NCBI GenBank assembly: GCA_013349285.1
Contig: DUZU01000005.1
Location: 19,772-83,771, forward strand
Direction of reading: 5' to 3'
Source of the DNA: Deltaproteobacteria bacterium
GTDB lineage: Bacteria > Desulfobacterota > Desulfobulbia > Desulfobulbales > Desulfurivibrionaceae
Length of the DNA: 64,000 bases
A program made the position numbers and the translations under genes. Under the pieces are notes generated by a model. It was not told where the DNA came from, did no database searches, and saw only the letters and a list, made by a program, of their open reading frames with translations. This document shows positions 35,684-53,681 of the stretch, one piece after another (position 1 is the stretch's first letter; each line of letters opens with the position of its first letter).

Positions 35684-35979
35684 GGCCACACTTTGAGTTT
35701 GGTACGATGTATTTTATACGATAAATAACTCAGCGAGACTATTCACTATACCATACCCCATAAAATAATATCAACTCGATGTATGGTGTTGATTTGGGTA
35801 TGTGTTTTCCATTGTAAGGTGATTTCTTCCTTTTAATTTAAACTGAAAATTAGTAAAAGCATTAGTAAAGGAAAAAGTGCAGGGATGGCGAGCTTACTCA
35901 CCATTTGCTTTTTTCCTTTTGTTTTATGGGGAGATTGTGCCTGGAGCACGCCACCCGCAACATAATTCCGAGGTTTAGT

Positions 35980-37386
35980 TTGAAAGATAAGGTTCTGATT
36001 GCAAATCGGGGTGAGATCGCCCTGCGGATCATGGAAGCCTGTAAAGACTTGGGTCTTGACTATGTTGTCGTTTATACCGATGCCGATGTGGAATCGGAGC
36101 ATGTTCAGCGTAATCTGGACAGCGGCAGCAACACCCGACGGGCCTGGCGTATTTCCAGTTATACCGATCCAAATGATATTCTTGCCGTAGCCGATCATAC
36201 CAAATGTACGGCTATACATCCCGGCTATGGTTTCTTTTCCGAGGATTTCCGTTTTGCTCGCCGGGTAACGGTCCGCAACCGCCCTTTGACCTTTATCGGG
36301 CCGAAGTGGGAGGTTGTTAAGGATCTCGGCGACAAGATCAATACCAAGCGGGTTGCCAACCGACTCGGCATCCCGACCATTCCCGGCACCGACGGCCCCA
36401 TTTATAATGAGATGGAGGCCGAAGACGTAGCCAATCATCTTTTGGGCGATCAGCTGGAAAGAAACATCAAAAAGCCTTCCATCCTGGTCAAGGCCGCCGC
36501 CGGTGGCGGTGGTATGGGAATTGAGGAGGTTTTTCAGATCGAGCATTTCCGGCGGGTTTACCGCCAGGTGCAGAACTATGCCAAGCGGCAGTTCGGCGAC
36601 GGGGGGGTGCTCATTGAACAATGTATCCGCGATTTCAATCATCTCGAGGTGCAGCTGGTTTGCAGCCGTCACGGTGAGCGGGTTCATTTCGGCACCAGGA
36701 ACTGCACCATCCAGAGTACCGGCCGCCAGAAGCGGCTGGAAGCGGCGCCCGGCTTTGACGACTCCTGCTTTGTCTATGATTTCAACGGCAAGGAAGTGCT
36801 TGATAAGGTGGTCGAGTACTCGTTGAAGCTTGCCTCCCACGTGCGGTACGATAACGTGGGGACCTGGGAGTGGATTGTCACCCGCGAGGGCCAGCCCTAT
36901 CTGCTTGAGGTCAACACCCGAATTCAGGTTGAAAATGACGTGTCGGCCCGGGTGAGTTATCTTAACAATAAACATCCCAATCTGATCCGGGAGCAGATCC
37001 GTCTGGCCCTTGGCGACCACATGGGCTACAGTCAGGAAGACGTTGATTCCCGCGGGGCGAGCATTGAGTTCCGGATCGTGGCCGAGGATACCCATCGCGG
37101 TTTTGCCCCGTGGATCGGCACCATTTCTAAATTTTCATTTCCGCAGCATGATTGGTCCACGGTTTACAGTCATGTGCCCACTGATCGCCCCTATGTCATT
37201 CCCAGTGATTTCGACCCTAATCTCGCTCTGGCGTTGGTCTGGGGAGATACCATGGCCGAGGCCAAGGAGCGCGGCCGTAAATTTCTGGCCGAAGTGGCCA
37301 TTGAGGGCAGCAATGCGGCGGGTGAGCCGATTATGACCAACTTGCCCTATTTGAACGAGAATATTGATCGACTTCTCACCTTTTGA
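35980..37386 (+). CDS. biotin carboxylase (divergent AccC-like ATP-grasp enzyme)
   Basis: TTG at 35980 with GAGG 6 nt upstream gives M-KDKVLIANRGEIALRI. HPGYGF, KAAAGGGGMGI and EVNTRIQVE motifs present. An alternative ATG lies at 35926. Confidence 0.85.
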   Translation: MKDKVLIANRGEIALRIMEACKDLGLDYVVVYTDADVESEHVQRNLDSGSNTRRAWRISSYTDPNDILAVADHTKCTAIHPGYGFFSEDFRFARRVTVRNRPLTFIGPKWEVVKDLGDKINTKRVANRLGIPTIPGTDGPIYNEMEAEDVANHLLGDQLERNIKKPSILVKAAAGGGGMGIEEVFQIEHFRRVYRQVQNYAKRQFGDGGVLIEQCIRDFNHLEVQLVCSRHGERVHFGTRNCTIQSTGRQKRLEAAPGFDDSCFVYDFNGKEVLDKVVEYSLKLASHVRYDNVGTWEWIVTREGQPYLLEVNTRIQVENDVSARVSYLNNKHPNLIREQIRLALGDHMGYSQEDVDSRGASIEFRIVAEDTHRGFAPWIGTISKFSFPQHDWSTVYSHVPTDRPYVIPSDFDPNLALALVWGDTMAEAKERGRKFLAEVAIEGSNAAGEPIMTNLPYLNENIDRLLTF

Positions 37387-37407
37387 TGATTCAAAGGTAA
37401 AAAATAC

Positions 37408-39663
37408 ATGGAAGATTTAAGAAAGCGTCTATTAAAAACCGAAGAACGACTCAGCTATCTCATTCACCTCAAAGATGGTGACGAATGGGGTAATCTGGTT
37501 GGCCTGCGCGAGAAATTCAATCTTCTGCGGGATAAATTCTATGATTTCAGCGAAGATGAACTGGGCGAAGAGATTCGCGCCCTTGAGGATTCGCTGTCTT
37601 TTCTTGAAGCGCGGAGCGAGGAGTCATTAAGCTCCATGGAGCGGGTGCGCATTGTCCGCAGTCCCCATCGTTTTTCGCTCAAGGACATTCTTGAAAATGT
37701 CTATGAGGATTATACCGAGCTAGGCGGCGAGGAAGATGCCAGTATCGATCCTTCCATGGTTGCGGCCCGGGCCAGTATCTCCCGCCGGGTCAAAAACAAG
37801 AACGTCTTGCAACAGGTCATGGTCATCGGCCACGAGAAGGGGCATGGCGAGGAATACCGCAACGGCGGGTGCAGCAAGCCCTGGGGTAATGAAAAGGCCC
37901 TGCGCTATATGCGGGTTGCCGAAACCGAGGGTATTCCCATTCATTTTTATATCTTCACCCCCGGCTCTTTTCCGGTGGAAGATTACCCCGGCGCCGGCCA
38001 GCAGATTGCCAGAAACATTTACGCCATGGCCAAATTGCGGGTGCCCATGGTTTCGTTGATCTCCGAAGGTGGTTCCGGCGGCGCCGAGGCCCTGGGCCTG
38101 AGCGACGTTCGCCTCATGTGCTCCCACGGTTATTATTCGGTGATCTCCCCGGAGGGCGCCGCCGCCATCGAGGGCAAGATTCGCGAAGGCGAGAAGATGC
38201 CCAAGGAGCTGGTTGAGGCCTGTGCCGAACGGTTGCATATTACGGCCGAGGAAAATCTGGCCCGCGGCACCATCGATCGAATTATCCAGGAGCCGCCGCT
38301 TGGGGCCAAACGTGACGATTTCGGCTTTTTCCGGGACATCAAATGCGAGGTGATCCGGGCCACCGATGAGGTGGTGCTTAAGACCAAGAGTCTCCGTGCT
38401 TTTAGGGCCTATGAGCTCAAGATGAAGAAGGCGGTCGGCAACGCCGCCGAAGAGCCGCACATCGACATCACCTGGGATCTGAACCGGGATGAGGTCAGCC
38501 GTTTGCTGGCTTTGCGTTCCAGAAAATATCGGAATATGGCGATCAGCGGATTTCTTGATCAGTCCACCAACTATTCGGCTTTTTATCAAAATACCAAGAA
38601 AAAGTTTTCAAAATTTTATTATACCTTCCGCTACGATATCCTGAAAACCCAGCAGAAGCAGGTGCAGAAGGTGATCAAGGATGTTTCCGGGGAAGGGTCG
38701 GTCCTGTTGCGTCAGGTTTCGGCGCCCTTTGCCGCCGCCTATGATTTTATTACCTCCAGGCCCGGGATCAAGGGGGGCAAGGTATCTCTGCCCGGTAACG
38801 GCGGTGGGGAGGATCCCATCGAATTCGGGGATATCTATACCAGCCCTCTGGCCAATGAAGATCGCACCGTTACCTGCCCCAATGCGGAAAAACATGGTTG
38901 CAAGGATCTCTGGGTCCGGGATCTCTATGGTGAGTTCGGCGGGGTCTGTGAGAATTGCGGTCATCATTTCCCCTTGGAGTATCAATGGTATCTCAAGCAT
39001 CTTTTTGATCCGGATTCCATTCGGGAATTCAATAACAATATTTGCTCCGGCAACCCCCTTGATTACCCCGGTTTTGAAAAGCGCTTGAAAGGCGCGATTG
39101 CTAAAACCGGGCGGCGCAGCGGGATTATAACCTTCGATGCCAGGGTGATGGGGGTTGATCTGGTGGTGGCCATGCTTTACAGCGATTTTCGTAACGGCAC
39201 CGTGGGTTCGGCCGAGGGTGAAAAGTTTGTGCGGGCCTGTGAGGCGGCTAAGCTCAAGAAGCGGCCGCTGCTTGCCTACATCCACACCACCGGTGGAATC
39301 AGGATCCATGAGGGAACCCTCGGCGTGGTGCAGATGCCCAAGTGCACCATGGCCGTTCGTGAGTACGTTGATGCCGGCGGCCTCTATATCGTTGTTTACG
39401 ACAACAATTCCTATGCCGGGCCGGTGGCAAGCTTTCTGGGATGTTCTCCTTACCAGTTCGCCATTCGTTCGAGCCGGGTCGGCTTTGCCGGGCCGCGGGT
39501 TATTCGCGATACCACCGGCGAGGATGTGCCGCCCGATTATCATAACGCCAGAAACGCCCTGAGGCGCGGCCATATTCAGGGAATCTGGGATCGACGCGAG
39601 TTCAGGCGGAATTTGCATAAGTCGCTGTTGACCATGGGCGGCAGCAATCTTTATTACCGATAA
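37408..39663 (+). CDS. fused carboxyltransferase, AccA-like N-half + AccD-like C-half
   Basis: 751 aa. AccA motifs IGHEKG, FIFTPG(S), SEGGSGGAEALG and SVISPEG. Then the AccD zinc ribbon CPNAEKHGC...CENCGHH and the crotonase-fold CT-beta region. Confidence 0.85.
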   Translation: MEDLRKRLLKTEERLSYLIHLKDGDEWGNLVGLREKFNLLRDKFYDFSEDELGEEIRALEDSLSFLEARSEESLSSMERVRIVRSPHRFSLKDILENVYEDYTELGGEEDASIDPSMVAARASISRRVKNKNVLQQVMVIGHEKGHGEEYRNGGCSKPWGNEKALRYMRVAETEGIPIHFYIFTPGSFPVEDYPGAGQQIARNIYAMAKLRVPMVSLISEGGSGGAEALGLSDVRLMCSHGYYSVISPEGAAAIEGKIREGEKMPKELVEACAERLHITAEENLARGTIDRIIQEPPLGAKRDDFGFFRDIKCEVIRATDEVVLKTKSLRAFRAYELKMKKAVGNAAEEPHIDITWDLNRDEVSRLLALRSRKYRNMAISGFLDQSTNYSAFYQNTKKKFSKFYYTFRYDILKTQQKQVQKVIKDVSGEGSVLLRQVSAPFAAAYDFITSRPGIKGGKVSLPGNGGGEDPIEFGDIYTSPLANEDRTVTCPNAEKHGCKDLWVRDLYGEFGGVCENCGHHFPLEYQWYLKHLFDPDSIREFNNNICSGNPLDYPGFEKRLKGAIAKTGRRSGIITFDARVMGVDLVVAMLYSDFRNGTVGSAEGEKFVRACEAAKLKKRPLLAYIHTTGGIRIHEGTLGVVQMPKCTMAVREYVDAGGLYIVVYDNNSYAGPVASFLGCSPYQFAIRSSRVGFAGPRVIRDTTGEDVPPDYHNARNALRRGHIQGIWDRREFRRNLHKSLLTMGGSNLYYR

Positions 39664-39678
39664 TCCAAAGCAAAACGG

Positions 39679-40332
39679 TTGACGATGACTCAAGATATTA
39701 ATTTTGAAGCAGTTATAAGCAAGTATCGTTCTGATCCCTACGAATACGTCGATGTCCGGACCAAGCATACCGGGCAGATTCGTTTCAAGGTCAGGGAGGG
39801 TTCCGAGGTTGAAGGCGCAACCGGGGAATGGCACCATATTCCCGGGACGCTGCTCTATGAATTGCTTCGCGAGGGCAACCAGAAGAAATTGCATTCGACG
39901 ACCAATGGCGTTGTCTCTTCTATCAGAAGTGAACTTGAAGGGAAGTTTGTCGAGGCCGGGGAAAAGGTCCTCACTATCCGCCATCCGTTGACCAAGCGAG
40001 AGATTATCGAAAATATCCTGCGTCAGGTTCTTGAGCCGTTTAATGCTCCGGAGCGGGCCAAGTATTTTTTCTCCCTTGACCTGCAGTCCAAAATCGACAA
40101 GTACGGCCAGCGCGGCGTCTCGATTAAGCCCGGCGATGAGATCCTGACCATGTCGTTGATGAAGCGGGATACGCCGGTCTATTATGCCGGTGAGCCCGGC
40201 ATCATCCATTCCGTTTATTTTCAGCCCGGGGTCAGCGTGGACCATGGTGAGCCGCTGATCGGCATCTGTTCCGAGGAAAAGCTGCCGTTGATCCAGAAGG
40301 TTATCACCAGGGTAAAGGCGGAGTGGGAGTAA
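39679..40332 (+). CDS. biotinyl-domain (BCCP-like) protein with atypical SLMKR site
   Basis: The C-terminal 70 aa align by eye to BCCP: GDEILTMSLMKRDTPVYYAGEPGIIHSVYFQPGVSVDHGEPLIGI versus [44 protein letters not shown]. Confidence 0.6.
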   Translation: MTMTQDINFEAVISKYRSDPYEYVDVRTKHTGQIRFKVREGSEVEGATGEWHHIPGTLLYELLREGNQKKLHSTTNGVVSSIRSELEGKFVEAGEKVLTIRHPLTKREIIENILRQVLEPFNAPERAKYFFSLDLQSKIDKYGQRGVSIKPGDEILTMSLMKRDTPVYYAGEPGIIHSVYFQPGVSVDHGEPLIGICSEEKLPLIQKVITRVKAEWE

Positions 40333-40389
40333 TTTCCGCTATTTTTCCCCTGTCATCTCTGTGGCTGATAGCGCCTGAGGCAAACATCA

Positions 40390-41313
40390 GTGGAGCGTCT
40401 TAGCCATAGCCTGATTCGTCAGATTATTACCGACGAGGATCGGCCCCGCCGCCTTGAAAAGTATTCAGCCGAGGTGGTGGCGGCGGTTTATCGTTACGGT
40501 GATTTTGTCGGCAGCTCCATCGAATCATATCCCCTTGAGGGTCGGCTCATGGAGCGGGCCCGGCAGCTGGTTGCCGATTGTGACCGGTGTGAACGATCAT
40601 TCCCCAGCGGCATGGTGCTGTTGGCCCATGAACTCACCGAAAGTCGCGGCCGTTTTCGGCGGGTGTGGCATGCGCCCCCCGGCGGTCTGTGGATGACCCT
40701 GGTGATCGCCAATACCTTGTTGCCGGCAAGCACCGCCCTTTATCCCCTTGCCGCCGGTCTGGCCTGCTGTGAGGCGGTGCGGCAATATGAGATCGATGCC
40801 AAGGTCAAGTGGGTTAATGATGTGCAGGTTTCCGGCCGCAAGATCTGCGGCATTCTCGCGGAAACCTTTACCAGTCCCAAATATAATGAAGAGTATATCC
40901 TGATCGGGGTGGGGGTTAATGTTAATAACCAGTCATTCCCGCCGGAGCTGGGCAGCTTGGCTGTTTCGATGCGGGATGTGCTGGGCCGGGAAATCGACCT
41001 TGAGCTTTTTGCCGCCCGCCTCCTTGCCAAGTTTGTTTGGAGTATCGGCCTGCTCCATCATGAAGAGCAGCAACGCCTTGATCGCGGTAACGATGATGAT
41101 CAGGCTGATCATCTGCATCCAGTCCTCGAGGGCTGGCGCGAGTTAACCGACTGTATCGGCCGGCAGGTCTGGTTCGGCTACGATGTTCAGGAAAAACCAC
41201 AGTACCGCGCCAAGGTGATGGGTCTTGATCCCAGCGGCGGCCTGATCTTGAAGCATCAGCAGGACGGGGTGGTCGTGGTCGAGCATGCCGGTGAAATCAT
41301 GTATATCGATTAA
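40390..41313 (+). CDS. birA: biotin-[acetyl-CoA-carboxylase] ligase
   Basis: GTG start. GRGRFRRVWHAPPGGLWMT matches the BPL signature GRGRxGRxWxSPxG. KWVNDV motif and a C-terminal SH3-like tail. Confidence 0.85.
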   Translation: MERLSHSLIRQIITDEDRPRRLEKYSAEVVAAVYRYGDFVGSSIESYPLEGRLMERARQLVADCDRCERSFPSGMVLLAHELTESRGRFRRVWHAPPGGLWMTLVIANTLLPASTALYPLAAGLACCEAVRQYEIDAKVKWVNDVQVSGRKICGILAETFTSPKYNEEYILIGVGVNVNNQSFPPELGSLAVSMRDVLGREIDLELFAARLLAKFVWSIGLLHHEEQQRLDRGNDDDQADHLHPVLEGWRELTDCIGRQVWFGYDVQEKPQYRAKVMGLDPSGGLILKHQQDGVVVVEHAGEIMYID

Positions 41314-41360: not shown

Positions 41361-42218
41361 TTGTTTTGCATGTCTCCTTCTCCTTTCGTCAGCGTAATCA
41401 TCCCCACTTACAATCGGGCCGCCTGGCTGCCCGGCGCCGTTGAGTCGGTGTTGGCCCAGACCCATCGTAACTTCGAACTGATCATCGTTGATGACGGTTC
41501 CAGCGATGCCACCGCCCGCTTTGTGGCCTCCCTTGTTCACCCCATCGTCTATCTCCGGCAGGATAATAAGGGGCCGGCCGCCGCCAGGAATCTCGGCATT
41601 AAAAATGCCCGGTATGATCTGCTGGCCTTTCTCGATGTTGATGACCGCTTTGTTGCAACCAAGCTCGCCCGGCAGGTGGCCGCCATGGCGCAAAGGCCTG
41701 ATGCGCTGATCTCTCACACGCAGGAGATCTGGTATCGGGATGGACAACAGCTTAATCAAAAAAAAAATCACCGGAAAAACTCCGGCAACATCTTTGCGCA
41801 AAGCCTCAAGCTTTGCACGGTCGGCATGTCAACGATGATGGCGCGGCGGGCGCTTTTTGACGGGATTGGCCTGTTGGATGAGGATCTGCCCTGTTGCGAG
41901 GATTACGATTTCTGGCTGCGGGCCAGTGTCAGCCATGATTTCCTGCTGATCGACGAGCCCCTGACCATTAAAAACGGTGGCCGGCCGGATCAGGTCTCCT
42001 CGCAGTATAGGGTGGGCATGGATCGTTTTCGGATTCGGGCCATTGCCAAGCTTCTTGAGCAACATGAACTGAGCGATGAGCAATACCGGCTGGCCTGCGA
42101 GGAATTGGTGCGAAAGGCGACTGTTTACGGTAAGGGCTGCATCAAGCACGGTAAAGAGGATGAGGGGAAAAGCTATCTTGCCCTTGCTGATAATGTCGGT
42201 AGGCCACCCCTGGGCTAG
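41361..42218 (+). CDS. family 2 glycosyltransferase
   Basis: VSVIIPTYNRA, IIVDDGSSD and the D-x-D context FLDVDD. The ATG at 41370 is a likely alternative start. Confidence 0.85.
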   Translation: MFCMSPSPFVSVIIPTYNRAAWLPGAVESVLAQTHRNFELIIVDDGSSDATARFVASLVHPIVYLRQDNKGPAAARNLGIKNARYDLLAFLDVDDRFVATKLARQVAAMAQRPDALISHTQEIWYRDGQQLNQKKNHRKNSGNIFAQSLKLCTVGMSTMMARRALFDGIGLLDEDLPCCEDYDFWLRASVSHDFLLIDEPLTIKNGGRPDQVSSQYRVGMDRFRIRAIAKLLEQHELSDEQYRLACEELVRKATVYGKGCIKHGKEDEGKSYLALADNVGRPPLG

Positions 42219-42574
42219 CGTTATTGATTTTTTTGTCTAAATTTAGGTCTTGATAAGTTGTTTGATCGGGTGTGCTTAGCTGCCACATTGTGGTGGGGCA
42301 TGCCCTTTTTTTTTGCTCATTTAGTTTTTTCTTTTAAGATAACCCTAACCATGTTTACCGCAATGTCGATGGATTAGCTATGTGATAGGATTGGTTATCA
42401 TTTCTTGTTCAGTTTTAGTGAATTGACATTAGATTATTTTGTTGCGCACTATATTAAAAGCAAACAACTTTTCGATTTCGTAATGGATAGTTGATTCGAG
42501 TTTTGGGGTGGGTTGCAAAAGGGTCGGGGGCTCCTATTGCATTCTTTTTTGATAATACTGTGGAGGGAATTATC

Positions 42575-45214
42575 GTGAAAAGATTGAAGAGCTTTTTTCT
42601 GTATTTATTTTTTCTGGCCGGGCTACCTTTATCCGCGATGGCTGCTGACCATGGCGGGGCTGACTGGGCCTATAGCGGCGCGGCCGGCCCTGCGCATTGG
42701 GGGGATTTGAGCCAGGAGTATGCTCTCTGCAGCACCGGGCTCAATCAATCCCCGATTGATATCGTGCAAACCGTTAGAAAAGATTTAGGTCCCCTTGTCT
42801 TTGCCTATCAAAGCGCCCCCTTGAGTGTGGTTAACAACGGGCATGCCATTCAGGCAAATCATAAGGCAGGCAGTTTCATCAAGGTGCAGGGCAAGCTTTA
42901 CAAGCTTTTGCAGTATCATTTCCATAGTCCCAGTGAAAACACCCATCGCGGTAAACCCTACGACATGGAGTTGCATCTGGTGCACAAGAGTGAGCAAGGG
43001 GAGCTTGCGGTGGTCGGGGTATTTATGCGGCAAGGTGCGGCCAATCAGCTGGTTCAGACCTTGTGGGACAATCTGAATCCCAAGGTTGCGCAATCGCGTA
43101 ACCTTCCCCATCTTCTTGTTAATCCAGTGGATTTGCTGCCATATAACGGCTCATATTATCATTTTAAAGGTTCTCTCACCACGCCGCCATGTTCGCAGGA
43201 TGTGCAGTGGTATCTGCTCAAAGACTCGATCGAGGTCTCGGCCGCCCAGATTGAAAAATTTGTGGGAATTATCGGCCACAATGCCCGTCCGGTTAATCCC
43301 CTCAACGGCAGAGAGATTGTCGAGGTTAGTCAGGGGAAGATTATCAATGCCGGTGTTGTTGTAACTAATGATCATGGCAATAGCGGTCATGGTGGTGTCG
43401 CTCAAGGCCATGTTGTTGCTGTTGCCGCTGCCGGGCACGGCAATAGCAATGTGGCTCATGCCTCGTTTGAGTCCGGCAAGGTAACTATCAAAAAGGAAAA
43501 AAGTCACGCAAAAGCCGAGTCGCGCAAAAGCGTATTCCATGCGGACGAACGTACTTCCGTGCATCAACAAGGAGTTCCGATTTGGTTCGTGTTGGCGGCT
43601 TTGGTGGTTTTAGGTGTTTTGGGGGTAATTTTTTTTAAAGGAGACAATATTATGATGTTCAGCAAAATGAAGGTAGGGGCCAGGATCGGCTTGATCATCT
43701 GTAGTTTGTTGGCATTGCTGATGGTGGTCGCCGGAATAAGTATTTCCAAGATGTCGAATATCGGCAACGAGCTCAAGCAGATCGCCGAAGAGGATATTCC
43801 GCTTACTGATTCGATTTGTAATATCGGTAATCATCAGTTGGAGATCGCTGTTTTGTTTGAACGCGGCTTTCGCCTTGGTGAAAAGGGCGATGTGGCCGGC
43901 ATGCAGCAATTATTAGCCGAGATCGACAAAAACGGTGAATCTGTTGTCGATTTGATTGGCGAAGCCCAAAAGATTGCAGAGGAAGGATTACACGCCGCTA
44001 ATAATGATAATGATCGTCGTGAGTTTGAAGGGGTGCTGACCCAACTTAAGACCATTGTCAAAGAGCATGATCAGGTCGAGGAACATGTCAAGAGCGTATT
44101 CGAGACCATTGCCCAGGGTAATCTGCATGAGGCGGAAGTGCTAGGTGAAAAGGTTGAGGTAGAGGCCGATGATGTGGATAAGGCTATCGCGGTTCTTCTT
44201 GAAGAGATCCAAAAGTTTACCGAAGCTGCGGGGCAAAGGGCTGAAGGTATTGAGGCTTCAGCCTTCAATTTGATTGTTGCGAGCACTATTGCCGCGCTCA
44301 TTATCGGGCTTGGTCTCGGCATAATGGTAAATCGCAGTATTGCCTTTGCCCTTAACAATGTGAAAGTCATCTCCGACAATGTTGCCGCCGCCAGTCTGCA
44401 GTTAAGTTCCACCGCCGAGGAGCTTTCCCAAGGCGCCAGTGAGCAGGCCGCCTCGGTTGAGGAATCTTCCGCCTCGGTGGAGCAGATGGCTGCCACCATT
44501 AAACAAAATACCGATAATGCCTTGCAGACCGAACAGATAGCCATGCACACCGCCGGTGATGCCGAGGAAAGCGGCCAGGCGGTGCAGTCCACCGTGGCGG
44601 CGATGAATAATATCGCCGGTAAGATCTCGATTATTGAAGAGATCGCCCGACAGACCAACCTCCTGGCTTTAAATGCCGCGATCGAGGCGGCCCGGGCCGG
44701 GGAGCACGGCAAGGGCTTTGCCGTGGTTGCTGCCGAGGTGAGAAAGCTGGCCGAAAGAAGCCAGAAGGCGGCGGCGGAGATCAGTGAATTATCCTCTTCA
44801 AGTGTCGATGTAGCTGATAAGGCCGGGAAAATGCTGAGTAAAATAGTGCCGGATATCCAGAAAACAGCCACCTTGGTTCAGGAGATCAGTGCCGCGAGCC
44901 GTGAGCAGACCGCGGGTACCGAACAGATCAACGAAGGGATGCAGCAGCTTGATACGGTTGTTCAGCAAAATTCCAGCGCCTCGGAAGAAATGGCCGCCAC
45001 CGCCGAAGAGCTTTCCGCCCAGGCGGAAGAGTTGCAGTCGGTGATTGCCTCGCTGATCAGCTCCGGGGGGGCAGCCTTTGCCGCGCCCAGAACTCCTAGA
45101 AAAACCGGCGTAATTCATAAGCCGGTGGTAGAGAAAAAAACCGGAGCTAAGTTGCTGTTGGGAAAGGCCAAACCCGTCCATGATAAGCTGGATGATGATT
45201 TCGAGCGTTTTTAA
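42575..45214 (+). CDS. alpha-carbonic anhydrase fused in frame to a methyl-accepting chemotaxis protein (879 aa)
   Basis: GTG at 42575 with a GGAGGG SD, followed by a signal peptide. CA hallmarks: QSPIDI, QYHFHSP, ELHLVH and SLTTPPC. Then a His-rich linker, TM, TM, a helical periplasmic domain, TM, and the MCP hairpin [35 protein letters not shown]. No stop codon until 45214. Confidence 0.8.
43629..43636. repeat. T8 homopolymer at the CA/MCP junction
   Basis: The junction reads gta att ttt ttt aaa gga gac aat att atg. T9 would give ...FFF-TAA. T7 would give ...IFLKETIL-TGA overlapping the MCP ATG. Confidence 0.95.
43652..45214 (+). CDS. methyl-accepting chemotaxis protein from an internal start
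   Basis: ATG at 43652 is preceded by AAAGGAGA (43637-43644). The 520-aa product has the standard TM / periplasmic 4-helix / TM / signalling-domain layout. Confidence 0.5.
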
Positions 45215-45236
45215 GGTCGAAACGCCCGTTTTTTTT
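45205..45236 (+). terminator. weak hairpin + T8 (possible attenuator between receptor and cheW)
   Basis: Stem gcgttt / aaacgc (6 bp, A/T-rich) with a 9-nt loop, then ccg and a T8 run. Confidence 0.4.
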
Positions 45237-45298: not shown

Positions 45299-45835
45299 AT
45301 GACAAAGGTCGAAGAAAAAGGCGAGCTTGTTGCGCAGTACTTGAGTTTCATCCTGCGCGAGGAGAATTTTGCCATTGAAATCTCAAAGGTCAGAGAGGTG
45401 CTGGATGTGACGGTGCTCACCAAAATTCCGCGGATGCCAGAATATTTAAGCGGGGTTATTAATTTGCGGGGCAACGTGGTGCCGGTGATGGATCTTGGTT
45501 TGAAGCTTGGGATGACGGGCATAGAGCAAACCCATAATACCTGTATCATGATTGTCGAGCTTGAGGTTGAAGGGGAAACAGTCGATATGGGGTTGTTGAC
45601 CGATTCGGTGCAGATGGTCATAGACCTGCGTAATGACGATATCGAAGCGGTGCCTAAGATGGGAACCGGGATTGATACTGAATTCATCAAGGGCATGGGC
45701 CGCCAGGATGAAAAATTTCTCATTATTCTTGATATTGACAAGGTTCTTGCCAAAGAAGGGCGTGCGGTATTGCAGGATAACAGCGATGAGATAATTGGTG
45801 CAGAGCAGGCTGAAGCGGTTACGGCCACCGCATAG
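45299..45835 (+). CDS. cheW: chemotaxis coupling protein CheW
   Basis: ATG at 45299 with an AAGGTG SD. Single CheW-like domain (FAIEISKVREV, INLRGNVVPVMDL, ILDIDKV). Confidence 0.9.
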   Translation: MTKVEEKGELVAQYLSFILREENFAIEISKVREVLDVTVLTKIPRMPEYLSGVINLRGNVVPVMDLGLKLGMTGIEQTHNTCIMIVELEVEGETVDMGLLTDSVQMVIDLRNDDIEAVPKMGTGIDTEFIKGMGRQDEKFLIILDIDKVLAKEGRAVLQDNSDEIIGAEQAEAVTATA

Positions 45836-45896: not shown

Positions 45897-48062
45897 ATGG
45901 GTAACAAAGAATATGTTGCGATCTTTCGCGAGGAGACCGCAGAGCTTCTGGATGAAATAGAAAGTTCTTTGCTTGAGCTTGAAAAAGACCCGAGCGATCT
46001 GATGATAGTCGGCCGAATTTTTCGGGCAATGCATACGATCAAGGGGTCAGGCGCGATGTTTGGTTTTGACGCCATCGCCGACTTTACTCATCATTTTGAA
46101 ACCATGCTTGATAAGGTGCGGGACGGTAAGGCTTCGGTCACCAGTGATTTGATAGATTTGACCTTGGCGTCCTGTGATTATATCCATGCCATGCTCGATG
46201 CGGATGGGGAGACGGTCGGCGATAACGTTGATCCGGAGGTTGGTGAGAAGTTGATAGCCTCTCTGCAAAAACTTGTTGGTGGGCATGGCGAAGGTGACGC
46301 CGGAGGGGAAAATTCTCCGCTTGATGATTGTGCAAAAAAATCACCTTCAGGTCAAAGAGCTCCGGTCCAAGATGGTGGGGAGAAAGCATCCGCCAAAGAA
46401 ATTAATGTCCATTACCGTATCAGTTTGTTGCCGACCATGGAATTTTTTTCAGGGGGGAACACTGTCGAGCAACTGATTGATGAGTTGAGCCTGCTCGGTG
46501 AATGTACGGTTTTTCAACATCCGGGCAATAAGGTGGATGGTGGAGCCGGAGATAATAATGATGCCTGGGAAATTTTGCTCACCACTGATCGGGGCACGGA
46601 TGCGGTTGAAGACGTGTTTGTCTTTGCCCGGTCCAGTTGCAATATATCAGTCACCGTGTTGGTGACCGAAGATGAGAATCATTTTGCAGAGCACCAAAAG
46701 CTGGGCGAGATTCTCATTGCCAGAGGAGATATCTCCCCGGACGATCTCAGCCGGGTTCTTGCCAAGCAAAAGCGTATCGGAGATCTCCTGGTTGAAGAAC
46801 ATCTGGTTTCCCGCTCCAAGGTTGATGCCGCGTTGGTCGAACAACAAATGTTGCAGCAAGCCTCGGCCAAGGTGGGGCAAACGAAAACCGCGGACAGTAT
46901 CCGGGTTGCGGCGGAAAAACTAGATCAACTTATCAATCTGGTGGGAGAGTTGGTGGTGAATCAAGCTCGATTGACCCAGGTATCTTCCAAGTATGACGAT
47001 CCAGGGCTGGTGGAGCCGGTGGAAGAGGTGGAGCGGCTTACCGCCGAGTTGCGCGACTGTGTTCTTAATATCAGAATGTTGCCCATCGGAACAACCTTTG
47101 CCCGTTTCAAACGGTTGGTCAGAGATTTATCGGCCGAGCTCGGCAAGGAGGTGGTTTTGGTGACTGAAGGCGGTGAAACCGAGCTTGATAAGAACGTTAT
47201 TGATCAACTCGGGGAGCCGATGATTCACCTGATCCGTAACTGTATTGACCATGGCATGGAAACTCCCGCCGACAGAGAGGCCAAAGGTAAGCCGCGCAAG
47301 GGGACGGTTCGCTTGTCGGCTGAACATGCCGGGGCAAATGTGGTAATTTCGGTAACCGATGACGGCAAGGGTCTTGATGTGGAGAAGATTCTTCAGAAAG
47401 GGATTGAGAAAGGCTTGGTCAGGGCCGGCGAAGATCTAAGCCAAAAAGAGATATTCAATTCTATTTTCATGCCGGGCCTGTCAACCGCCGCGACCGTTTC
47501 CAGCGTCTCCGGGCGCGGAGTCGGCATGGATGTGGTCAAGACCACCATCGAGCGGCTCAAGGGTTCTGTTTGTGTGGCGGAAAGCGTTAAAAATAAAGGG
47601 ACAACCATCACCATAACCTTGCCGCTGACCTTGGCCATTATCGACGGGTTGCTGGTTTTGGTTGAAGATACCTACTTGGTTCTGCCCCTGACGCAGGTGG
47701 AGGAGTGTGTCGAGCTTACCAAGGAGGATATAGATCATTTCCATGATCGTCGGATGATTCCGGTGCGGGATCAGTTGGTGCCCTATGTGCGGCTCCGTGA
47801 TTTTTTTGCAATACCCGGAAAACGGCCGGAGATTGAACAAATGGTTATTGTGATGGTTAACGGAGAGCGGTTCGGTCTGGTTCTCGACGATGTTATCGGT
47901 GAACATCAGACGGTGTTGAAGTCCTTGGGCTGGGTTTACCGGAATGCCATAGGGTTGTCAGGATCGACGGTGCTGGGAAATGGTGAAGTTGCCTTGATTA
48001 TCGATGTGCCCGATATTATGAAGGTTGCGCAAAAAGAAGAGAAAGACGTTTTTGCAGACTGA
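45897..48062 (+). CDS. cheA: chemotaxis histidine kinase CheA
   Basis: 721 aa. HPt box FRAMHTIKGSGAMFGF, a dimerisation region, the HATPase domain (HLIRNCIDHG, DDGKGL, GRGVGMD) and a C-terminal CheW-like domain. Confidence 0.95.
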   Translation: MGNKEYVAIFREETAELLDEIESSLLELEKDPSDLMIVGRIFRAMHTIKGSGAMFGFDAIADFTHHFETMLDKVRDGKASVTSDLIDLTLASCDYIHAMLDADGETVGDNVDPEVGEKLIASLQKLVGGHGEGDAGGENSPLDDCAKKSPSGQRAPVQDGGEKASAKEINVHYRISLLPTMEFFSGGNTVEQLIDELSLLGECTVFQHPGNKVDGGAGDNNDAWEILLTTDRGTDAVEDVFVFARSSCNISVTVLVTEDENHFAEHQKLGEILIARGDISPDDLSRVLAKQKRIGDLLVEEHLVSRSKVDAALVEQQMLQQASAKVGQTKTADSIRVAAEKLDQLINLVGELVVNQARLTQVSSKYDDPGLVEPVEEVERLTAELRDCVLNIRMLPIGTTFARFKRLVRDLSAELGKEVVLVTEGGETELDKNVIDQLGEPMIHLIRNCIDHGMETPADREAKGKPRKGTVRLSAEHAGANVVISVTDDGKGLDVEKILQKGIEKGLVRAGEDLSQKEIFNSIFMPGLSTAATVSSVSGRGVGMDVVKTTIERLKGSVCVAESVKNKGTTITITLPLTLAIIDGLLVLVEDTYLVLPLTQVEECVELTKEDIDHFHDRRMIPVRDQLVPYVRLRDFFAIPGKRPEIEQMVIVMVNGERFGLVLDDVIGEHQTVLKSLGWVYRNAIGLSGSTVLGNGEVALIIDVPDIMKVAQKEEKDVFAD

Positions 48063-48131: not shown

Positions 48132-49010
48132 TTGACGAAAAAAGTGGCTGTTCATATGAGTGATGGGTCAATTCAGCCTGTTTTAACAGATCGTGAATTT
48201 AAAAAAATAAGCGCGTTTGTGTATGATGTCTGCGGCATTAAACTCCCTCCCATCAAAAAAACCATGCTTTCCGCACGATTGCAAAAAAGATTGCGACAGT
48301 TGCGAATAACTAGTTTCTCCGATTACTTCTCCTATGTCCTGAGTCCAGAAGGGCGGGCGCATGAGTTGCCCTTGATGATTGATGTGGTCAGTACCAACAA
48401 AACTGATTTTTTCAGGGAGGCTAAACATTTTGATGTGCTCACTACAAGGGTCTTGCCTGATTTTGTAAAAAGATTTGCCCAAGGCAACCGAAAGCTTCTC
48501 AGGGTATGGAGCGCAGGGTGCTCCAGCGGGGAGGAGCCTTACACCTTGGCCATGGTGTTGGATGATTTTTTCTCCAAGGTGGCCGGCATTGATTTTTCTA
48601 TCTTGGCCACCGATATCTGTACGGAAGTTCTGGCCAAGGCTGAGAAGGCGGTCTACCATGACGCCGGTCTGGAGCCAATTCCCACTCGCTTTCGCTATAA
48701 GTATTTGATGCGGGGAAAAGGGCAACAGAAAGGCTATCATCGGGTGGTGCCGGAGTTGCGCCGCAAGGTGAGTTTTCAACGACTTAATTTCATGGATAAA
48801 TGTTTTGCCATTGATCATAAAATGGACATAATTTTTTGTCGTAACGTGATTATCTATTTTGATAAAAAAACCCAGGCTGATCTCTTTGCTAAATTTCGTG
48901 AGCAATTTATGGCTTATGGCTATTTGTTTATCGGTCATTCCGAGTCTCTTGAAGGGCCGGCCGGCCAGATGGAAAGGGTAGCTTCAGCTGTATACAAGTG
49001 TGTTAAATGA
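48132..49010 (+). CDS. cheR: chemotaxis protein methyltransferase CheR
   Basis: N-terminal helical domain plus a SAM-binding fold (RVWSAGCSSGEEPYTLAM, IFCRNVIIYF). The start is ambiguous (TTG 48132 or ATG 48156). Confidence 0.9.
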   Translation: MTKKVAVHMSDGSIQPVLTDREFKKISAFVYDVCGIKLPPIKKTMLSARLQKRLRQLRITSFSDYFSYVLSPEGRAHELPLMIDVVSTNKTDFFREAKHFDVLTTRVLPDFVKRFAQGNRKLLRVWSAGCSSGEEPYTLAMVLDDFFSKVAGIDFSILATDICTEVLAKAEKAVYHDAGLEPIPTRFRYKYLMRGKGQQKGYHRVVPELRRKVSFQRLNFMDKCFAIDHKMDIIFCRNVIIYFDKKTQADLFAKFREQFMAYGYLFIGHSESLEGPAGQMERVASAVYKCVK

Positions 49011-49510
49011 TGCCGATGCCGGAAAAGGAGTTACCCACGGTTATCCTTGGGCCCGGGGAATTGTTTGTTGCCCGTAAGCCCACTATTATAACCACGATTT
49101 TAGGCTCTTGCGTTGCGGTGTGCCTCTATTGCCCCCAGCATCGGATTGGCGCGATGTGTCATGGTGTGTTGCCGAGATTCGGCAAGCAGTTTGAAAATGA
49201 TAGTTTTCGCTTTGTGGTCAGCTCTATTCGGCATATGGTGGAGGTCATGGCCAACGGGAAAAAACATTGTCCTAACAGCGGGTTGGTGGCCAAGGTTTTC
49301 GGTGGGGCGGAGGTGCTGGGTTTTTCTCGTAAGTCGAGCAAGAAAGGCTCCATCGGCGTTCAGAATATTGAGGCGGCTCGAAATTCTTTGAAAGATTTGA
49401 GTGTGTCGATCAAGGTCGAGGAGGTTGGCGGGGTCAATGGTCGGAAGCTGTTTTTTTATTCCCATAGCGGGGAGGTTTACATGAAGCCTATCCCTCGTTC
49501 GATTAAATAA
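49007..49510 (+). CDS. cheD: chemoreceptor glutamine deamidase CheD
   Basis: 167 aa with the active-site Cys context ILGSCVAVCLY. ATGA overlap with the cheR stop. Confidence 0.85.
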   Translation: MMPMPEKELPTVILGPGELFVARKPTIITTILGSCVAVCLYCPQHRIGAMCHGVLPRFGKQFENDSFRFVVSSIRHMVEVMANGKKHCPNSGLVAKVFGGAEVLGFSRKSSKKGSIGVQNIEAARNSLKDLSVSIKVEEVGGVNGRKLFFYSHSGEVYMKPIPRSIK

Positions 49511-49519
49511 AGGGATCCT

Positions 49520-50584
49520 ATGAACCGGAAGATCAGTGTGCTGATTGTTGACGATTCCGCCGTGGTTCGGCAGGTGCTGACCGATACGTTGGAGGCGGAT
49601 CCGCAGATTCGGGTCATGGGCGCTGCCCGGGATCCATTCGTGGCCGCGGATTACATCGAGAAAGAAGTGCCGGACGTTATTGTGCTTGATGTTGAAATGC
49701 CGCGGATGGATGGCCTTACTTTTTTGCACACGATTATGACCCAGCACCCGGTGCCGGTGGTTATGTGTTCGACCTTGACGGAAAAGGGGGCGGAGACGAC
49801 TTTAAAGGCGTTGGAGTACGGGGCCGTCGATATAATCCAAAAACCTAAATTGGGTACCAAGAAGTTTTTGGAGGAATCTCGCATTCGAATCTGTGATGCG
49901 GTTAAGGCGGCGGCCAGGGTCGTGGTCAAGCGGACCGCCGCCGCCCCTGTTCGGCGTGTGGAAAAAAAACTTACCGCCGATGCCGTGCTCGCTCCTCCAT
50001 CGGCTAAGGCAATGGTGCAGACCACGGAACGGGTGGTCGCGGTAGGAGCTTCTACGGGCGGCACAGAAGCTTTGCGGGTTTTTTTGGAGCAATTGCCCCG
50101 GGATTGTTCAGGGGTGGTCATTGTTCAGCATATGCCCGAAGGGTTTACCCGGGCCTTTGCCGCGCGCTTGGACGGCTTGTGTAGTATTAGGGTGAAAGAG
50201 GCCCAGAACGGTGATTCTGTTTTACGCGGGCAAGCGCTCATTGCGCCCGGCAATAAACATATGCTGTTGAAGCGAAGCGGGGCGCGTTATTACGTTGAAA
50301 TAAAAGACGGCCCCTTTGTCTGTCGGCATCGTCCTTCCGTTGATGTCCTTTTTCGATCAACCGCAAGGTACGCCGGCAAGAATGCCATCGGGATCATCAT
50401 GACCGGCATGGGAGATGACGGGGCCAGGGGGATGCTGGAGATGAAGCAGGCAGGGGCCTTTACCATTGCCCAGGATGAGGCGAGCTGCGTGGTGTTCGGT
50501 ATGCCCAAGGAGGCCATTGCCCTTAACGGGGTGGATCAGGTTCTCTCCTTGGAACAGATTGCGCCTAGGATTTCCCGAATGTAA
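49520..50584 (+). CDS. cheB: chemotaxis response regulator protein-glutamate methylesterase CheB
   Basis: REC domain ([17 protein letters not shown]) plus the methylesterase domain (GASTGG, HMP, GMGDDG). Confidence 0.95.
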
Positions 50585-50734
50585 AAAAAATGGTGTCCCT
50601 AAAAAATGAGCCTGTACAAAAGGTGAAGATTATGTACATAATTTTATAAAATATATAATTAATATCAAGACCATCGGTGTATGGCGCTCTTTGCCGCGAG
50701 TGCCCCGCCTTTTTTTTATTCGATAAGGAGAGTT

Positions 50735-52327
50735 ATGGACCTCTTGAAGGACTTTTCTCAGAAGGACATGATCGAGCAGATCATCATCCTTGATGAGATC
50801 AAAGAGACCAAGCAGGTTGAGTTGTTGCCTGAGTTGTTTAATCTGTATGTGAACCCCCTTGGCGACCATGCCGTCAATGAGATGGTTTATCATACCATCT
50901 TTGATTTGCTTGCCGGCCAGGAGCAGAAGATCATTTCAGGTTTTACCAGCAGTTCCAAGGCGGTGCAGATATTATCGGTGCGGCGGGCCGCGGATGGTGG
51001 TTCCGAAACATTAAAAGCCGCTCTGGTCAAACAGCTGGACGGTTCCGAAGATAATGAGCTTATTTCCGAGATCATTCGGGCTCTGGCCCATTTTAAAGAT
51101 CCGGCCCTTATTGATGTCTTTTTGTCATATATCCAGCATGATGACTATGCGGTAGTGGCCTGGGCGCTGAAGGCTTTGGCCAGAATCCATGACCCCAAGG
51201 CCAGGGACGTGGTTATGGGGGTGGTGTCGTCCAGCCGGGAGGCCCAGGAGGTCTCCGGCGGATGCGAGTTGCGCACGGCATTGGCCATTGAGAATGTGGC
51301 TGAATTCGGTGATGAGCAGTCTGTTGATTTTCTGATTAAATATATCCATAATTCTAACCCATCTTTTAGGCGGGTGGTTATTTCCGCGCTCGCCACCATG
51401 GATGAAAAAGTACTGCCTGGCTTGGTGGCGTGTCTTGAGTCCGGCGATAAGGACGAAAAGATCATGGCCGCCAATATTATCGGTTGGTCCGGCCATAAAA
51501 AAGGCGCCGATATTCTCGTTTCCTTTCTCGATGAGGCAGAAGAACTTAATCTGAAATTTGCAATTTATGAGGCCCTGGGTCGGATTAATTCTATGCGTAG
51601 TATCGTGGGGTTGACCGACGGCCTTGATGAAAAGGACGAGTTGGTTTTGATTGCGGTGGTGACCGGTCTTGATCATCTTTGCAATCCAGGGGTGGTTAAG
51701 ATGTTCAACGATGTTCTTGTTCAGGGAGACGACAAGAGCGCCCGCATATTAAAGACCATCGTCACCTCCCATGCCAGGAAACTTTTTGCCGAACTTTACC
51801 AGGCAGGTCAGCATGCGCCAAAAATGATCCAGGCGATCACCGCTTCCGGCGATCCTGAGGCGATGGCCGTCTTCCGGGCCGAACTTGAGGGAATGACCGG
51901 TGAGCAGGCTGCCCAGGATGCGCAAAGGTTGAGCGGGGCTACCGGGGCGGGTTCTACCAAAGAAAAAAGGATTTTGGCCGCCGATGACTCAAAGGCCATG
52001 CTTTTCTTTTACAAAAGCGTGGCCGCCGATCTCGGCATGGAACTGGTCACCGTGGAAGACGGCAAGCAGGCCTTTGACTTTTTGAAGGCAGACGACAAGT
52101 TCGATCTGATCATCAGTGATATGAACATGCCCAATATGGATGGCATTGAATTGACCCGTGAGATTAGGAAGCGTTCCGAATGGGCGGGGTTGCCGATCCT
52201 TATGGCCACCACCGAGTCGGAAAACAGCCAGGCCGAGCTTGCCACCAAGGCCGGAGTCAACGATTTCATTACCAAGCCCTTTTCCAAGGATGATTTCAAG
52301 GCCAAGATTGCCCAGATGTTTGGCTGA
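50735..52327 (+). CDS. HEAT-repeat protein with C-terminal CheY-like receiver domain
   Basis: ATG at 50735 follows AAGGAGAG. About 400 aa of HEAT/PBS-lyase-type repeats. Then a REC domain (ILAADDS, ISDMNMPNMDG, MATTE, ITKPF). Confidence 0.8.
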   Translation: MDLLKDFSQKDMIEQIIILDEIKETKQVELLPELFNLYVNPLGDHAVNEMVYHTIFDLLAGQEQKIISGFTSSSKAVQILSVRRAADGGSETLKAALVKQLDGSEDNELISEIIRALAHFKDPALIDVFLSYIQHDDYAVVAWALKALARIHDPKARDVVMGVVSSSREAQEVSGGCELRTALAIENVAEFGDEQSVDFLIKYIHNSNPSFRRVVISALATMDEKVLPGLVACLESGDKDEKIMAANIIGWSGHKKGADILVSFLDEAEELNLKFAIYEALGRINSMRSIVGLTDGLDEKDELVLIAVVTGLDHLCNPGVVKMFNDVLVQGDDKSARILKTIVTSHARKLFAELYQAGQHAPKMIQAITASGDPEAMAVFRAELEGMTGEQAAQDAQRLSGATGAGSTKEKRILAADDSKAMLFFYKSVAADLGMELVTVEDGKQAFDFLKADDKFDLIISDMNMPNMDGIELTREIRKRSEWAGLPILMATTESENSQAELATKAGVNDFITKPFSKDDFKAKIAQMFG

Positions 52328-53636: not shown

Positions 53637-53681
53637 AAAAAAAGCGCCGAATCCGCTGCTTGCGAGTTCGGCGCTTTTTTT
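53637..53681. terminator. bidirectional intrinsic terminator (fbp / glnS)
   Basis: Stem aagcgccgaa / ttcggcgctt, flanked by an A7 run and a T7 run. The glnS stop abuts the T-run. Confidence 0.85.

Follow-up and report, generated by a model that had tools for sequence, protein, structure and literature searches.

Results

The locus and its CA-MCP fusion gene

The gene described here lies in a stretch of 64,000 nucleotides (the window, in whose own numbering all positions are given) from contig DUZU01000005.1 of the Deltaproteobacteria bacterium assembly GCA_013349285.1, and encodes an alpha-carbonic anhydrase (alpha-CA) and a complete transmembrane methyl-accepting chemotaxis protein (MCP) in a single polypeptide. 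Such a covalent fusion of a periplasmic enzyme with a chemoreceptor had been proposed earlier by a reader who saw the sequence alone (the original prediction); the analysis reported here fully supports the architecture and shows it to belong to a conserved family rather than to be a one-off. On the + strand, a single unbroken open reading frame (ORF) extends from the GTG at 42575 to 45214, with the stop codon at 45212-45214, and specifies 879 amino acids; coordinates, translation and the GGAGGG motif ahead of the GTG agree with what had been read before. A mechanical ORF listing reaches further upstream, to a TTG at 42491. The start was taken to be the GTG because the N-termini of the homologs in an alignment of 30 fusions (alignment A1) fall at the position equivalent to 42575, which is also the only one of the candidate starts that places a hydrophobic signal sequence at the N-terminus. 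The features of the gene are as follows, with the evidence in brackets (AF2, AlphaFold2; pLDDT, predicted local distance difference test; TM, transmembrane helix; 4HB, four-helix bundle).

42562-42567 (+): Shine-Dalgarno (SD) motif GGAGGG of the GTG start, spacer of 7 nucleotides before 42575
42575-45214 (+): CA-MCP fusion gene, 879 amino acids plus stop
42575-42643 (+): Sec-type signal peptide, residues 1-23 (hydropathy peak 6-24; in nearly all homologs)
42656-43330 (+): alpha-CA domain, residues about 28-252 (Pfam E 4e-39, PDB matches, AF2)
43340-43576 (+): disordered, His-rich, low-complexity tether, residues 256-334 (AF2 pLDDT, composition)
43577-43636 (+): TM1, residues 335-354, periplasm to cytoplasm, its final codons forming the T8 tract (hydropathy, AF2)
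43629-43636 (+): tract of eight T (T8) at the end of TM1 (read from the sequence)
43637-43684 (+): cytoplasmic loop, residues 355-370, with five positive charges (hydropathy, alignment)
43637-43643 (+): internal SD motif AAAGGAG, codons Lys355-Gly356-Asp357 (an SD-like motif stands here in eight of ten fusion genes)
43652-43657 (+): in-frame ATG ATG, codons 360-361, candidate internal start (8 nucleotides past the internal SD)
43685-43744 (+): TM2, residues 371-390 (hydropathy, AF2)
43745-44269 (+): periplasmic 4HB sensor, residues 391-565 (weak Pfam 4HB_MCP_1/TarH matches, AF2, Foldseek)
44270-44329 (+): TM3, residues 566-585, running on into the cytoplasmic helix (AF2, no HAMP)
44330-45058 (+): MCP signalling domain, residues 586-828, hairpin 689-719, 34H class (Pfam E 4e-32; Tsr alignment)
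45059-45211 (+): disordered C-terminal tail ending in DFERF, residues 875-879 at 45197-45211 (AF2 pLDDT below 50 over 829-857)

Read from the N-terminus, the protein thus consists of a Sec signal peptide, the alpha-CA, a His-rich disordered tether, TM1, a cytoplasmic loop of 16 amino acids, TM2, a periplasmic four-helix bundle, TM3, a HAMP-less 34H MCP signalling domain and the C-terminal DFERF. All three families for which profile searches had been proposed in Pfam were matched: Carb_anhydrase over residues 38-249 (E 4e-39, 135 bits, cutoff 27), MCPsignal over residues 655-807 (E 4e-32, 111.8 bits, cutoff 34.6) and 4HB_MCP_1 over residues 364-546 with 29.3 bits (E 8e-7), barely over the curated cutoff of 27, besides a TarH match (E 2e-6); in NCBIfam the C-terminal third matches named transducers, all of them below threshold. 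A hydropathy scan gave four hydrophobic segments, at 6-24 (the signal peptide, predicted by the AxA rule to be cleaved after A-M-A), 336-354, 371-389 and 559-577, the last three of which fall inside or beside TM1, TM2 and TM3, so that the three-helix topology of the original prediction could be located and agrees with hydropathy. The short loop between TM1 and TM2 with its five positive charges fits this topology, with the carbonic anhydrase (CA) and the sensor outside and the loop and the signalling domain inside.

The fusion is genuine and conserved

The original prediction named a different length of the T8 tract in read-level data as something that could undo the fusion, and this concern is legitimate. 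Removal of one T creates a TGA overlapping the ATG, addition of one T a TAA, a good SD and an ATG follow immediately after the tract, and stand-alone MCP homologs begin at that very Met, all as would be expected if a sequencing or assembly error had joined adjacent genes for a membrane-anchored CA and an MCP. The identical 879-residue protein is nevertheless found on a JGI contig of 89,969 bp, under the NCBI accession MDH5522782.1, which comes from a Desulfobulbaceae metagenome-assembled genome on a contig of 249,870 bp, and in the Logan assembly of SRR7132271, while a third-party-annotation (TPA) record holds the same protein sequence with a later start. When the DNA of nine homologous genes was inspected, all were open across the junction, as is the window gene (ten of ten), and none of the nine carries a T8 tract there.

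Searching for the same fusion elsewhere, which had been proposed as a check, returned a family. A word-indexed search yielded 41 clusters, 30-60% identical to the query, in which PF00194 and PF00015 occur together, to which an exhaustive search added more, and a motif count over all fetched sequences gave 49 in which a CA motif is followed by an MCP hairpin; once four duplicate or cluster-member entries are discounted, the distinct fusions number at least 45 and come from different sequencing projects, with the same topology and with the junction open in every gene sampled. At 30-61% identity, the fusions keep the order of signal peptide, CA, TM, loop, TM, sensor, TM and MCP. A scan of a genome collection with the single protein, for which the patterns were overly specific, found two CA-only loci and no fusion, and a metagenome scan derived from A1 and run on generic CA and MCP motifs found the fusion in none of 80 new loci. 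Because the identical protein stands in separate records and the fusion is kept in distant homologs that lack the T tract, an artefact is effectively refuted and scarcely credible as an explanation; judged from the sequences, the CA-MCP fusion is real and under selection. A programmed -1 frameshift or phase variation at T8, where a -1 slip leads to an immediate TAA, was considered and rejected, as the tract is absent from the other nine genes.

The carbonic anhydrase domain

The CA motifs quoted in the original prediction are all present, QSPIDI at 58-63, QYHFHSPSE at 113-121, ELHLVH at 132-137 and SLTTPPC at 200-206. Tested against the reference residues of human CA II (hCAII; zinc ligands His94, His96 and His119, gate Thr199-Thr200 with Glu106, and shuttle His64), the catalytic residues of the fusion are the zinc ligands His115, His117 and His134, together with Glu121, Thr202-Thr203, the shuttle His90 and the pair Cys52/Cys206, which corresponds to the disulfide of bacterial alpha-CAs. 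A phmmer search of the PDB gave 6eki as best match (E 1.5e-65), followed by 6im0 and 4c3t (these three at 1e-62 to 1e-65), with whose zinc ligands His115, His117 and His134 align. Across the 30 aligned fusions His117, His134, Glu121, Thr202, Thr203, Cys52 and Cys206 are invariant and His115 and the shuttle His90, within NNGHA, nearly so (at least 90%), and in AF2 the CA reaches a pLDDT of mostly 80-95 over residues 50-255.

The retention of the shuttle His, which is needed for turnover only, favours an active enzyme over a dead binding module, and by its sequence the CA should be exported to the periplasm by the Sec pathway and be active. In the CA-like domains of the vertebrate receptors RPTPgamma and RPTPzeta, the zinc ligands are lost and the domain is inactive; with its active-site residues present and conserved, the CA encoded here reads as an intact enzyme and not as an inactive module of that type. 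Beside the fusion gene for P0020, a separate alpha-CA gene of 271 amino acids (L089, 5208-6023) lies directly upstream and is called as overlapping, so that a CA gene and a CA-MCP gene stand in tandem. Among the matches there are also very long proteins, P0127 (1841 amino acids), P0129 (2170) and P0142 (2340), to which the query matched in 6, 11 and 13 stretches, best on the alpha-CA; these, like P0028 and P0029, have no evident MCP part and appear to consist of tandem CA repeats.

The tether

In the full-length AF2 model, which was built on A1 and has a mean pLDDT of 72.7, residues 260-334 remain below 50, at about 30 per block. This tether is rich in Ser, Ala, Gly and His, varies between 37 and 102 amino acids across the homologs, and its sequence is neither conserved nor alignable. 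His makes up 10.3% of it in the window protein and on average 7.6% in the family against 2.5% elsewhere, an about three-fold enrichment that is missing in three of 30 linkers, and could serve in proton buffering or relay, in metal binding or in giving the tether pH-dependent dimensions. In the model the tether is flexible and not a lever. A disordered and non-conserved segment of this kind would carry no conformational signal, so that the CA would contribute via its chemistry or its position.

The receptor module

Residues 360-879 form a complete chemoreceptor with an N-terminal TM, an antiparallel four-helix bundle, a second TM and a signalling hairpin. Modelled alone by AF2, the bundle shows four antiparallel helices at a pLDDT of 89, and its best natural Foldseek matches are the ligand-binding domain of Vc1313 (TMt 0.76-0.77) and those of PcaY_PP and MCP2201 (about 0.55-0.68), at 9-19% sequence identity to these 4HB matches. 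A profile search of the bundle against PDB sequences found only designed helical bundles, sigma factors and cytochrome b562 at chance-level scores, and a lone faint Pfam match to hemerythrin occurred in one of 27 members (E 0.007). On the strength of the model, the periplasmic domain is a canonical 4HB sensor; its conserved residues are Glu429, Arg430, Arg481, Glu483, His498, Phe548, Thr549 and Glu560.

The signalling domain aligns with Tsr (1qu7/3zx6) at E 1e-36 to 6e-39 with one gap of seven residues per arm, symmetric about the hairpin. MCP classes are defined by heptad number (PMC8235581), and with one heptad pair fewer than the 36H Tsr the domain belongs to the 34H class. The conclusion drawn earlier that no HAMP domain fits between the last TM and the signalling helices holds, since Pfam has no match there, the Tsr alignment starts about 18 residues past TM3 and AF2 predicts an unbroken helix over 517-707, from the periplasm to the hairpin, followed by a second one over 709-828. 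Endings of the type [DE]F[EK][KR][YF] are found at the C-terminus of 36 of the 49 motif-positive fusion sequences (counting the four duplicates or cluster members), and the pattern of DFERF, with aromatics at positions 2 and 5 at the end of a flexible tail, fits that of a CheR/CheB-docking pentapeptide.

Family and origin of the fusion

According to A1 and hydropathy, the family plan comprises a signal peptide, a CA of about 225 amino acids, a linker of 37-102, TM1, a short basic loop, TM2, a helical periplasmic domain of about 180 amino acids (about 290 in some distant members), TM3, the MCP and a variable tail. The sources are named Desulfobulbaceae, Desulfobacteraceae, Desulfobacterales, Thermodesulfobacteriota, Candidatus Magnetoovum and Leptospiraceae. 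In A1, an insert of about 57 residues follows directly on TM3 in nine of the 30 sequences, two of these nine having two extra heptads as well, and Pfam HAMP is recorded in other fusions such as P0030, P0040 and P0063; with HAMP-bearing and HAMP-less fusions side by side, the CA module sits on more than one receptor chassis.

Stand-alone MCPs exist that match the receptor half alone. P0031 and P0035 are 56-60% identical to residues 360-879 and no CA gene lies beside them on their contigs, and a dozen stand-alone homologs from the exhaustive search have their first residue precisely at query positions 360-365, with N-termini (MNFLNNMKVG...) that match the sequence after the internal Met of the fusions. 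By its sequence, the fusion looks as if a membrane-anchored CA had been attached, in reading frame, to the beginning of a receptor gene that already existed. Another protein, P0065 (818 amino acids), combines a signal peptide and a short N-terminal stretch in the periplasm with a TM pair, HAMP and MCPsignal and ends in the C-terminal motif of the family, here EFEEY, with no Pfam CA match, and its domain plan suggests that it may be a derivative from which the enzyme was lost.

A conserved, predicted internal translation start

A conserved, predicted internal ribosome-binding site with a start codon at the junction, which the original prediction had missed, is added by the present analysis. Translation from codon 360 is predicted to give a two-TM receptor of 520 amino acids without the CA. 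In eight of ten fusion genes the loop reads AAR GGA GGN (Lys-Gly-Gly) or GGAGGTGA, followed at a distance of 5-8 nucleotides by an in-frame start, ATG in six genes and TTG in two. Ranked by duplex energy with the anti-SD, the internal SD plus start comes first in five genes, second in two and third in the window gene. The first Gly codon in the loop is GGA in all eight genes, in which GGA accounts for 8-45% of Gly codons; as a baseline, in these eight genes of 43-65% protein identity one and the same codon is kept throughout in none of 23 invariant Gly columns and in four of 183 invariant degenerate columns. The 60 nucleotides around the internal start are among the about 10% least structured in six of the eight genes, and among the least 1.5% in the window gene, and their GC content is 25-42% as compared to 45-55% for the genes; the junction of the window gene folds no better than its shuffles (z = +1.3). 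A promoter scan upstream of codon 360 revealed no convincing internal promoter.

We read the conservation of the SD among homologs, which exceeds the constraint at the protein level, as selection at the nucleotide level in a large sub-clade, and the CA-less receptor of 520 amino acids is probably also made alongside the full-length protein. In principle, the internal SD could be left over from the ancestral gene boundary and be decaying slowly, which would not explain the choice of the GGA codon at this divergence; the region upstream of the stand-alone P0031 (L004), in which the SD region cannot be aligned with the internal SD, is silent on relic versus function. Escherichia coli cheA gives long and short functional forms from the same mRNA via an in-frame internal start. 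The two cases share the in-frame internal SD and start, the N-terminally shorter product and the setting in a chemotaxis gene, whereas the internal start of the CA-MCP gene is predicted from conservation and its isoforms would differ by an exported enzyme domain and one TM.

Genomic context

The fusion gene opens a cheW-A-R-D-B operon, whose further features are:

45205-45225 (+): terminator-like hairpin plus T run overlapping the fusion stop codon (consensus match only; such sites are no more frequent than in shuffles)
45299-45835 (+): cheW
45897-48062 (+): cheA
48132-49010 (+): cheR
49007-49510 (+): cheD
49520-50584 (+): cheB
50681-52327 (+): HEAT-repeat (HEAT_2)/receiver protein of 548 amino acids, last gene of the che operon

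The hairpin, located before the cheW ATG at 45299, could make the che genes that follow less strongly expressed than the receptor. In six of ten sampled loci (the window, L088, L090, L091, L092 and L093) cheW stands directly downstream of the fusion, and cheA, cheR and cheB flank it in the window, L087, L088 and L091; L085 and L094 are exceptions to the che context. Genes for CheY-like receivers of 121-122 amino acids adjoin cheA in L088, L091 and L093, HEAT/receiver genes lie beside the fusion also in L087 (11566-12257) and L092 (9226-10905), and the clusters L088, L091, L092 and L093 include STAS-domain proteins and hybrid kinases. A gene for the flagellar assembly protein FapA in the window suggests a flagellate host.

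Upstream and on the same strand, a biotin-dependent carboxylase operon (35905-41313) ends about 1.3 kb before the CA-MCP gene. The link of this bicarbonate-consuming operon to inorganic carbon may be a coincidence. Its genes and the one that follows are:

35905-37386 (+): biotin carboxylase
37408-39663 (+): fused AccA/carboxyltransferase, 751 amino acids
39679-40332 (+): BCCP-like protein
40390-41313 (+): biotin-protein ligase
41361-42218: glycosyltransferase gene between the carboxylase operon and the CA-MCP gene

Two further observations concern other parts of the window. At 27412-28581 on the - strand, one ORF of 389 amino acids combines a YbeY endoribonuclease (31-143) with a PdxJ pyridoxine-phosphate synthase (155-386), and at 53680-55368 and 55498-56973, likewise on the - strand, two adjacent genes encode class I aminoacyl-tRNA synthetases of the Glu/Gln type, one with GlnRS-type anticodon-binding domains and one of the GluRS type.

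Discussion

Both halves of the CA-MCP protein belong to textbook families; what is new is that they are combined, together with the additional TM tether and the conserved, predicted internal start. Residues 360-879 resemble canonical 4HB chemoreceptors such as E. coli Tar and Tsr, Vc1313, PcaY_PP and MCP2201, with which they share the aromatic pentapeptide tail and the neighbouring cheW, cheA, cheR and cheB genes, while the signal peptide, the alpha-CA, the tether and the additional TM, which make the mature protein a three-TM receptor, are not found in these, and in comparison to Tsr the protein lacks HAMP and is of the 34H instead of the 36H class. The enzyme in turn resembles bacterial alpha-CAs (6eki, 6im0, 4c3t and 1kop/1koq; phmmer E 1e-51 to 1e-65) in its zinc triad, gate, disulfide, shuttle His and Sec signal peptide, but whereas the solved alpha-CA chains of 217-248 residues have no membrane or signalling part, the CA here is membrane-tethered and joined to a signalling protein. 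Databases name the homologs 'carbonic anhydrase family protein', 'methyl-accepting chemotaxis protein' or 'hypothetical' only, and in the literature searched, which did not include most subscription journals, neither a description of a CA-MCP fusion nor a dedicated bacterial CO2 chemoreceptor was found.

A proposed coupling of chemoreceptor and enzyme

What might a chemoreceptor gain from a carbonic anhydrase? CO2 offers little to bind, at ambient temperature its uncatalysed hydration proceeds with a half-time of tens of seconds, and chemotactic comparisons last about seconds. A tethered CA would keep periplasmic CO2, HCO3- and H+ equilibrated right at the receptor array, so that periplasmic HCO3- and H+ would track external CO2 without lag, and the four-helix bundle could respond to bicarbonate or protons as a rapid stand-in for external CO2 or inorganic carbon, passing the signal via TM3 directly into the kinase-control helices. 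As the tether is disordered, the enzyme would act through its products and not by pushing on the receptor. If ribosomes also start at codon 360, the arrays would mix CA-bearing and plain subunits. That the tethered CA and the bundle together constitute a sensor of CO2, HCO3- or H+ is a reading that we consider evenly poised; it fits because the active site is conserved, the tether flexible and the gene part of a che operon, and because no competing description was found in the literature searched. The fuller proposal of an enzyme-coupled receptor for seconds-scale taxis to CO2 or inorganic carbon (or to pH via CO2), in which the internal start sets the ratio of enzyme-bearing to plain subunits, is put forward tentatively.

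A similar logic is known from CA-assisted CO2 sensing in animals and fungi, namely in mouse GC-D olfactory neurons with CAII, in sour-taste cells with Car4 and in fungi with Nce103 and adenylyl cyclase. There, too, CA converts the poorly bindable CO2 to HCO3- and H+ fast enough for a sensor; in these systems enzyme and sensor are separate, whereas CA-MCP would unite them in one polypeptide in the bacterial periplasm. In design, the closest analogues of CA-MCP are vertebrate RPTPgamma and RPTPzeta, single-polypeptide transmembrane receptors that carry an extracellular CA fold and are implicated in CO2/HCO3- sensing (PMC11215419, PMC7541084). There is no homology beyond the CA fold, and the output is a histidine-kinase array in the one case and a phosphatase in the other.

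Several points weigh against a sensor of this kind. The structural neighbours of the bundle bind amino acids, aromatic acids or carboxylates, and no ligand can be deduced from the conserved positions. The stand-alone MCPs without an adjoining CA share the bundle with the same conserved residues, and as the bundle thus occurs without CA, its ligand may be something other than a product of the enzyme. An untethered, soluble CA in the periplasm would be just as effective at equilibrating the inorganic carbon species, so that kinetics alone do not explain the tethering. In the homolog P0014, Gln replaces zinc ligand 115 and Arg the shuttle residue 90, substitutions by which its CA is probably inactive while the full architecture is kept. 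The distant fusion genes L093 and L094 have neither the internal SD nor the Met, and the short isoform is therefore not universal. Finally, the window operon lacks a single-domain CheY and ends in the HEAT-repeat/receiver gene, such that the output may not be flagellar.

Alternative explanations

The bundle might sense an unrelated molecule, with the CA being a passenger for periplasmic inorganic-carbon or pH homeostasis that is merely anchored or co-expressed with the receptor. The CA-less MCPs with the same bundle and the disordered tether, which provides no mechanical link, speak for mere co-localisation, as do the bicarbonate-consuming biotin carboxylase operon just upstream and the separate CA gene beside the fusion in L089. 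For localisation, however, a simple lipid or TM anchor would suffice, and the fusion has been kept for long, down to about 30% identity, with MCPs of different classes (34H without HAMP as well as 36H-like with HAMP) and within che operons; moreover, the CA has many other fusion partners among the matches and only here an extra TM helix leading to a signalling protein. On balance, we consider it unlikely that the CA is a mere passenger.

Doubtful to about the same degree is that the pathway is chemosensory but not devoted to motility, with an output in gene expression, surface behaviour or development via the HEAT-repeat/receiver protein. The composition of the window operon, with HEAT_2 plus receiver as its last gene and no single-domain CheY, points in this direction, and so do the same kind of gene adjoining the fusion in L087 and L092 and the STAS-domain proteins and hybrid kinases in L088, L091, L092 and L093. 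The short CheY-like genes next to cheA in L088, L091 and L093, the FapA gene in the window and the presence of CheR, CheB, CheD and the C-terminal pentapeptide, which indicates a full adaptation system as in taxis, argue otherwise. This alternative concerns the output and not the input, and is compatible with the sensing of CO2, HCO3- or H+ by the tethered CA and the bundle.

The CA domain could also be the sensor itself, akin to the catalytically dead CA-like domains of RPTPgamma and RPTPzeta, if the binding of CO2/HCO3-, or of an inhibitory anion such as HS-, at its zinc site were signalled through TM1, which adjoins TM2 and TM3 in the membrane at a conserved position; that P0014 keeps the fusion without the catalytic residues would be in line with this. 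A eukaryotic precedent is given by these vertebrate receptors, whose CA-like ectodomains are implicated in CO2/HCO3- sensing (PMC11215419, PMC7541084). Against signalling by the CA itself stand the disordered, non-conserved linker of 37-102 residues between CA and TM1, which would pass on no conformational signal, and the near invariance of the whole catalytic apparatus including the turnover-only shuttle His. Alpha-CAs are, in addition, rigid and change little upon ligand binding, and this last alternative is very improbable.

Significance

The CA-MCP family is a strong candidate for a bacterial sensor of CO2, bicarbonate or pH. If the proposed coupling is true, this would be the first known bacterial chemoreceptor to produce the ligand it senses with an enzyme of its own, and the bacterial counterpart to the way animals sense CO2 with the help of CA. 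Chemotactic sensing of CO2 and bicarbonate by bacteria is poorly understood, and the family offers a concrete candidate with an enzyme as handle, accessible to specific inhibitors and point mutants. As a clean case of a conserved internal start, it also suggests that one gene may yield two receptors. The hosts belong to anaerobic sediment lineages (Desulfobulbaceae and other Thermodesulfobacteriota, magnetotactic Nitrospirota and Leptospiraceae), in whose habitats gradients of inorganic carbon and pH vary with depth. CA-MCP would also extend the input modules of chemoreceptors beyond passive binding domains to a catalytic one.

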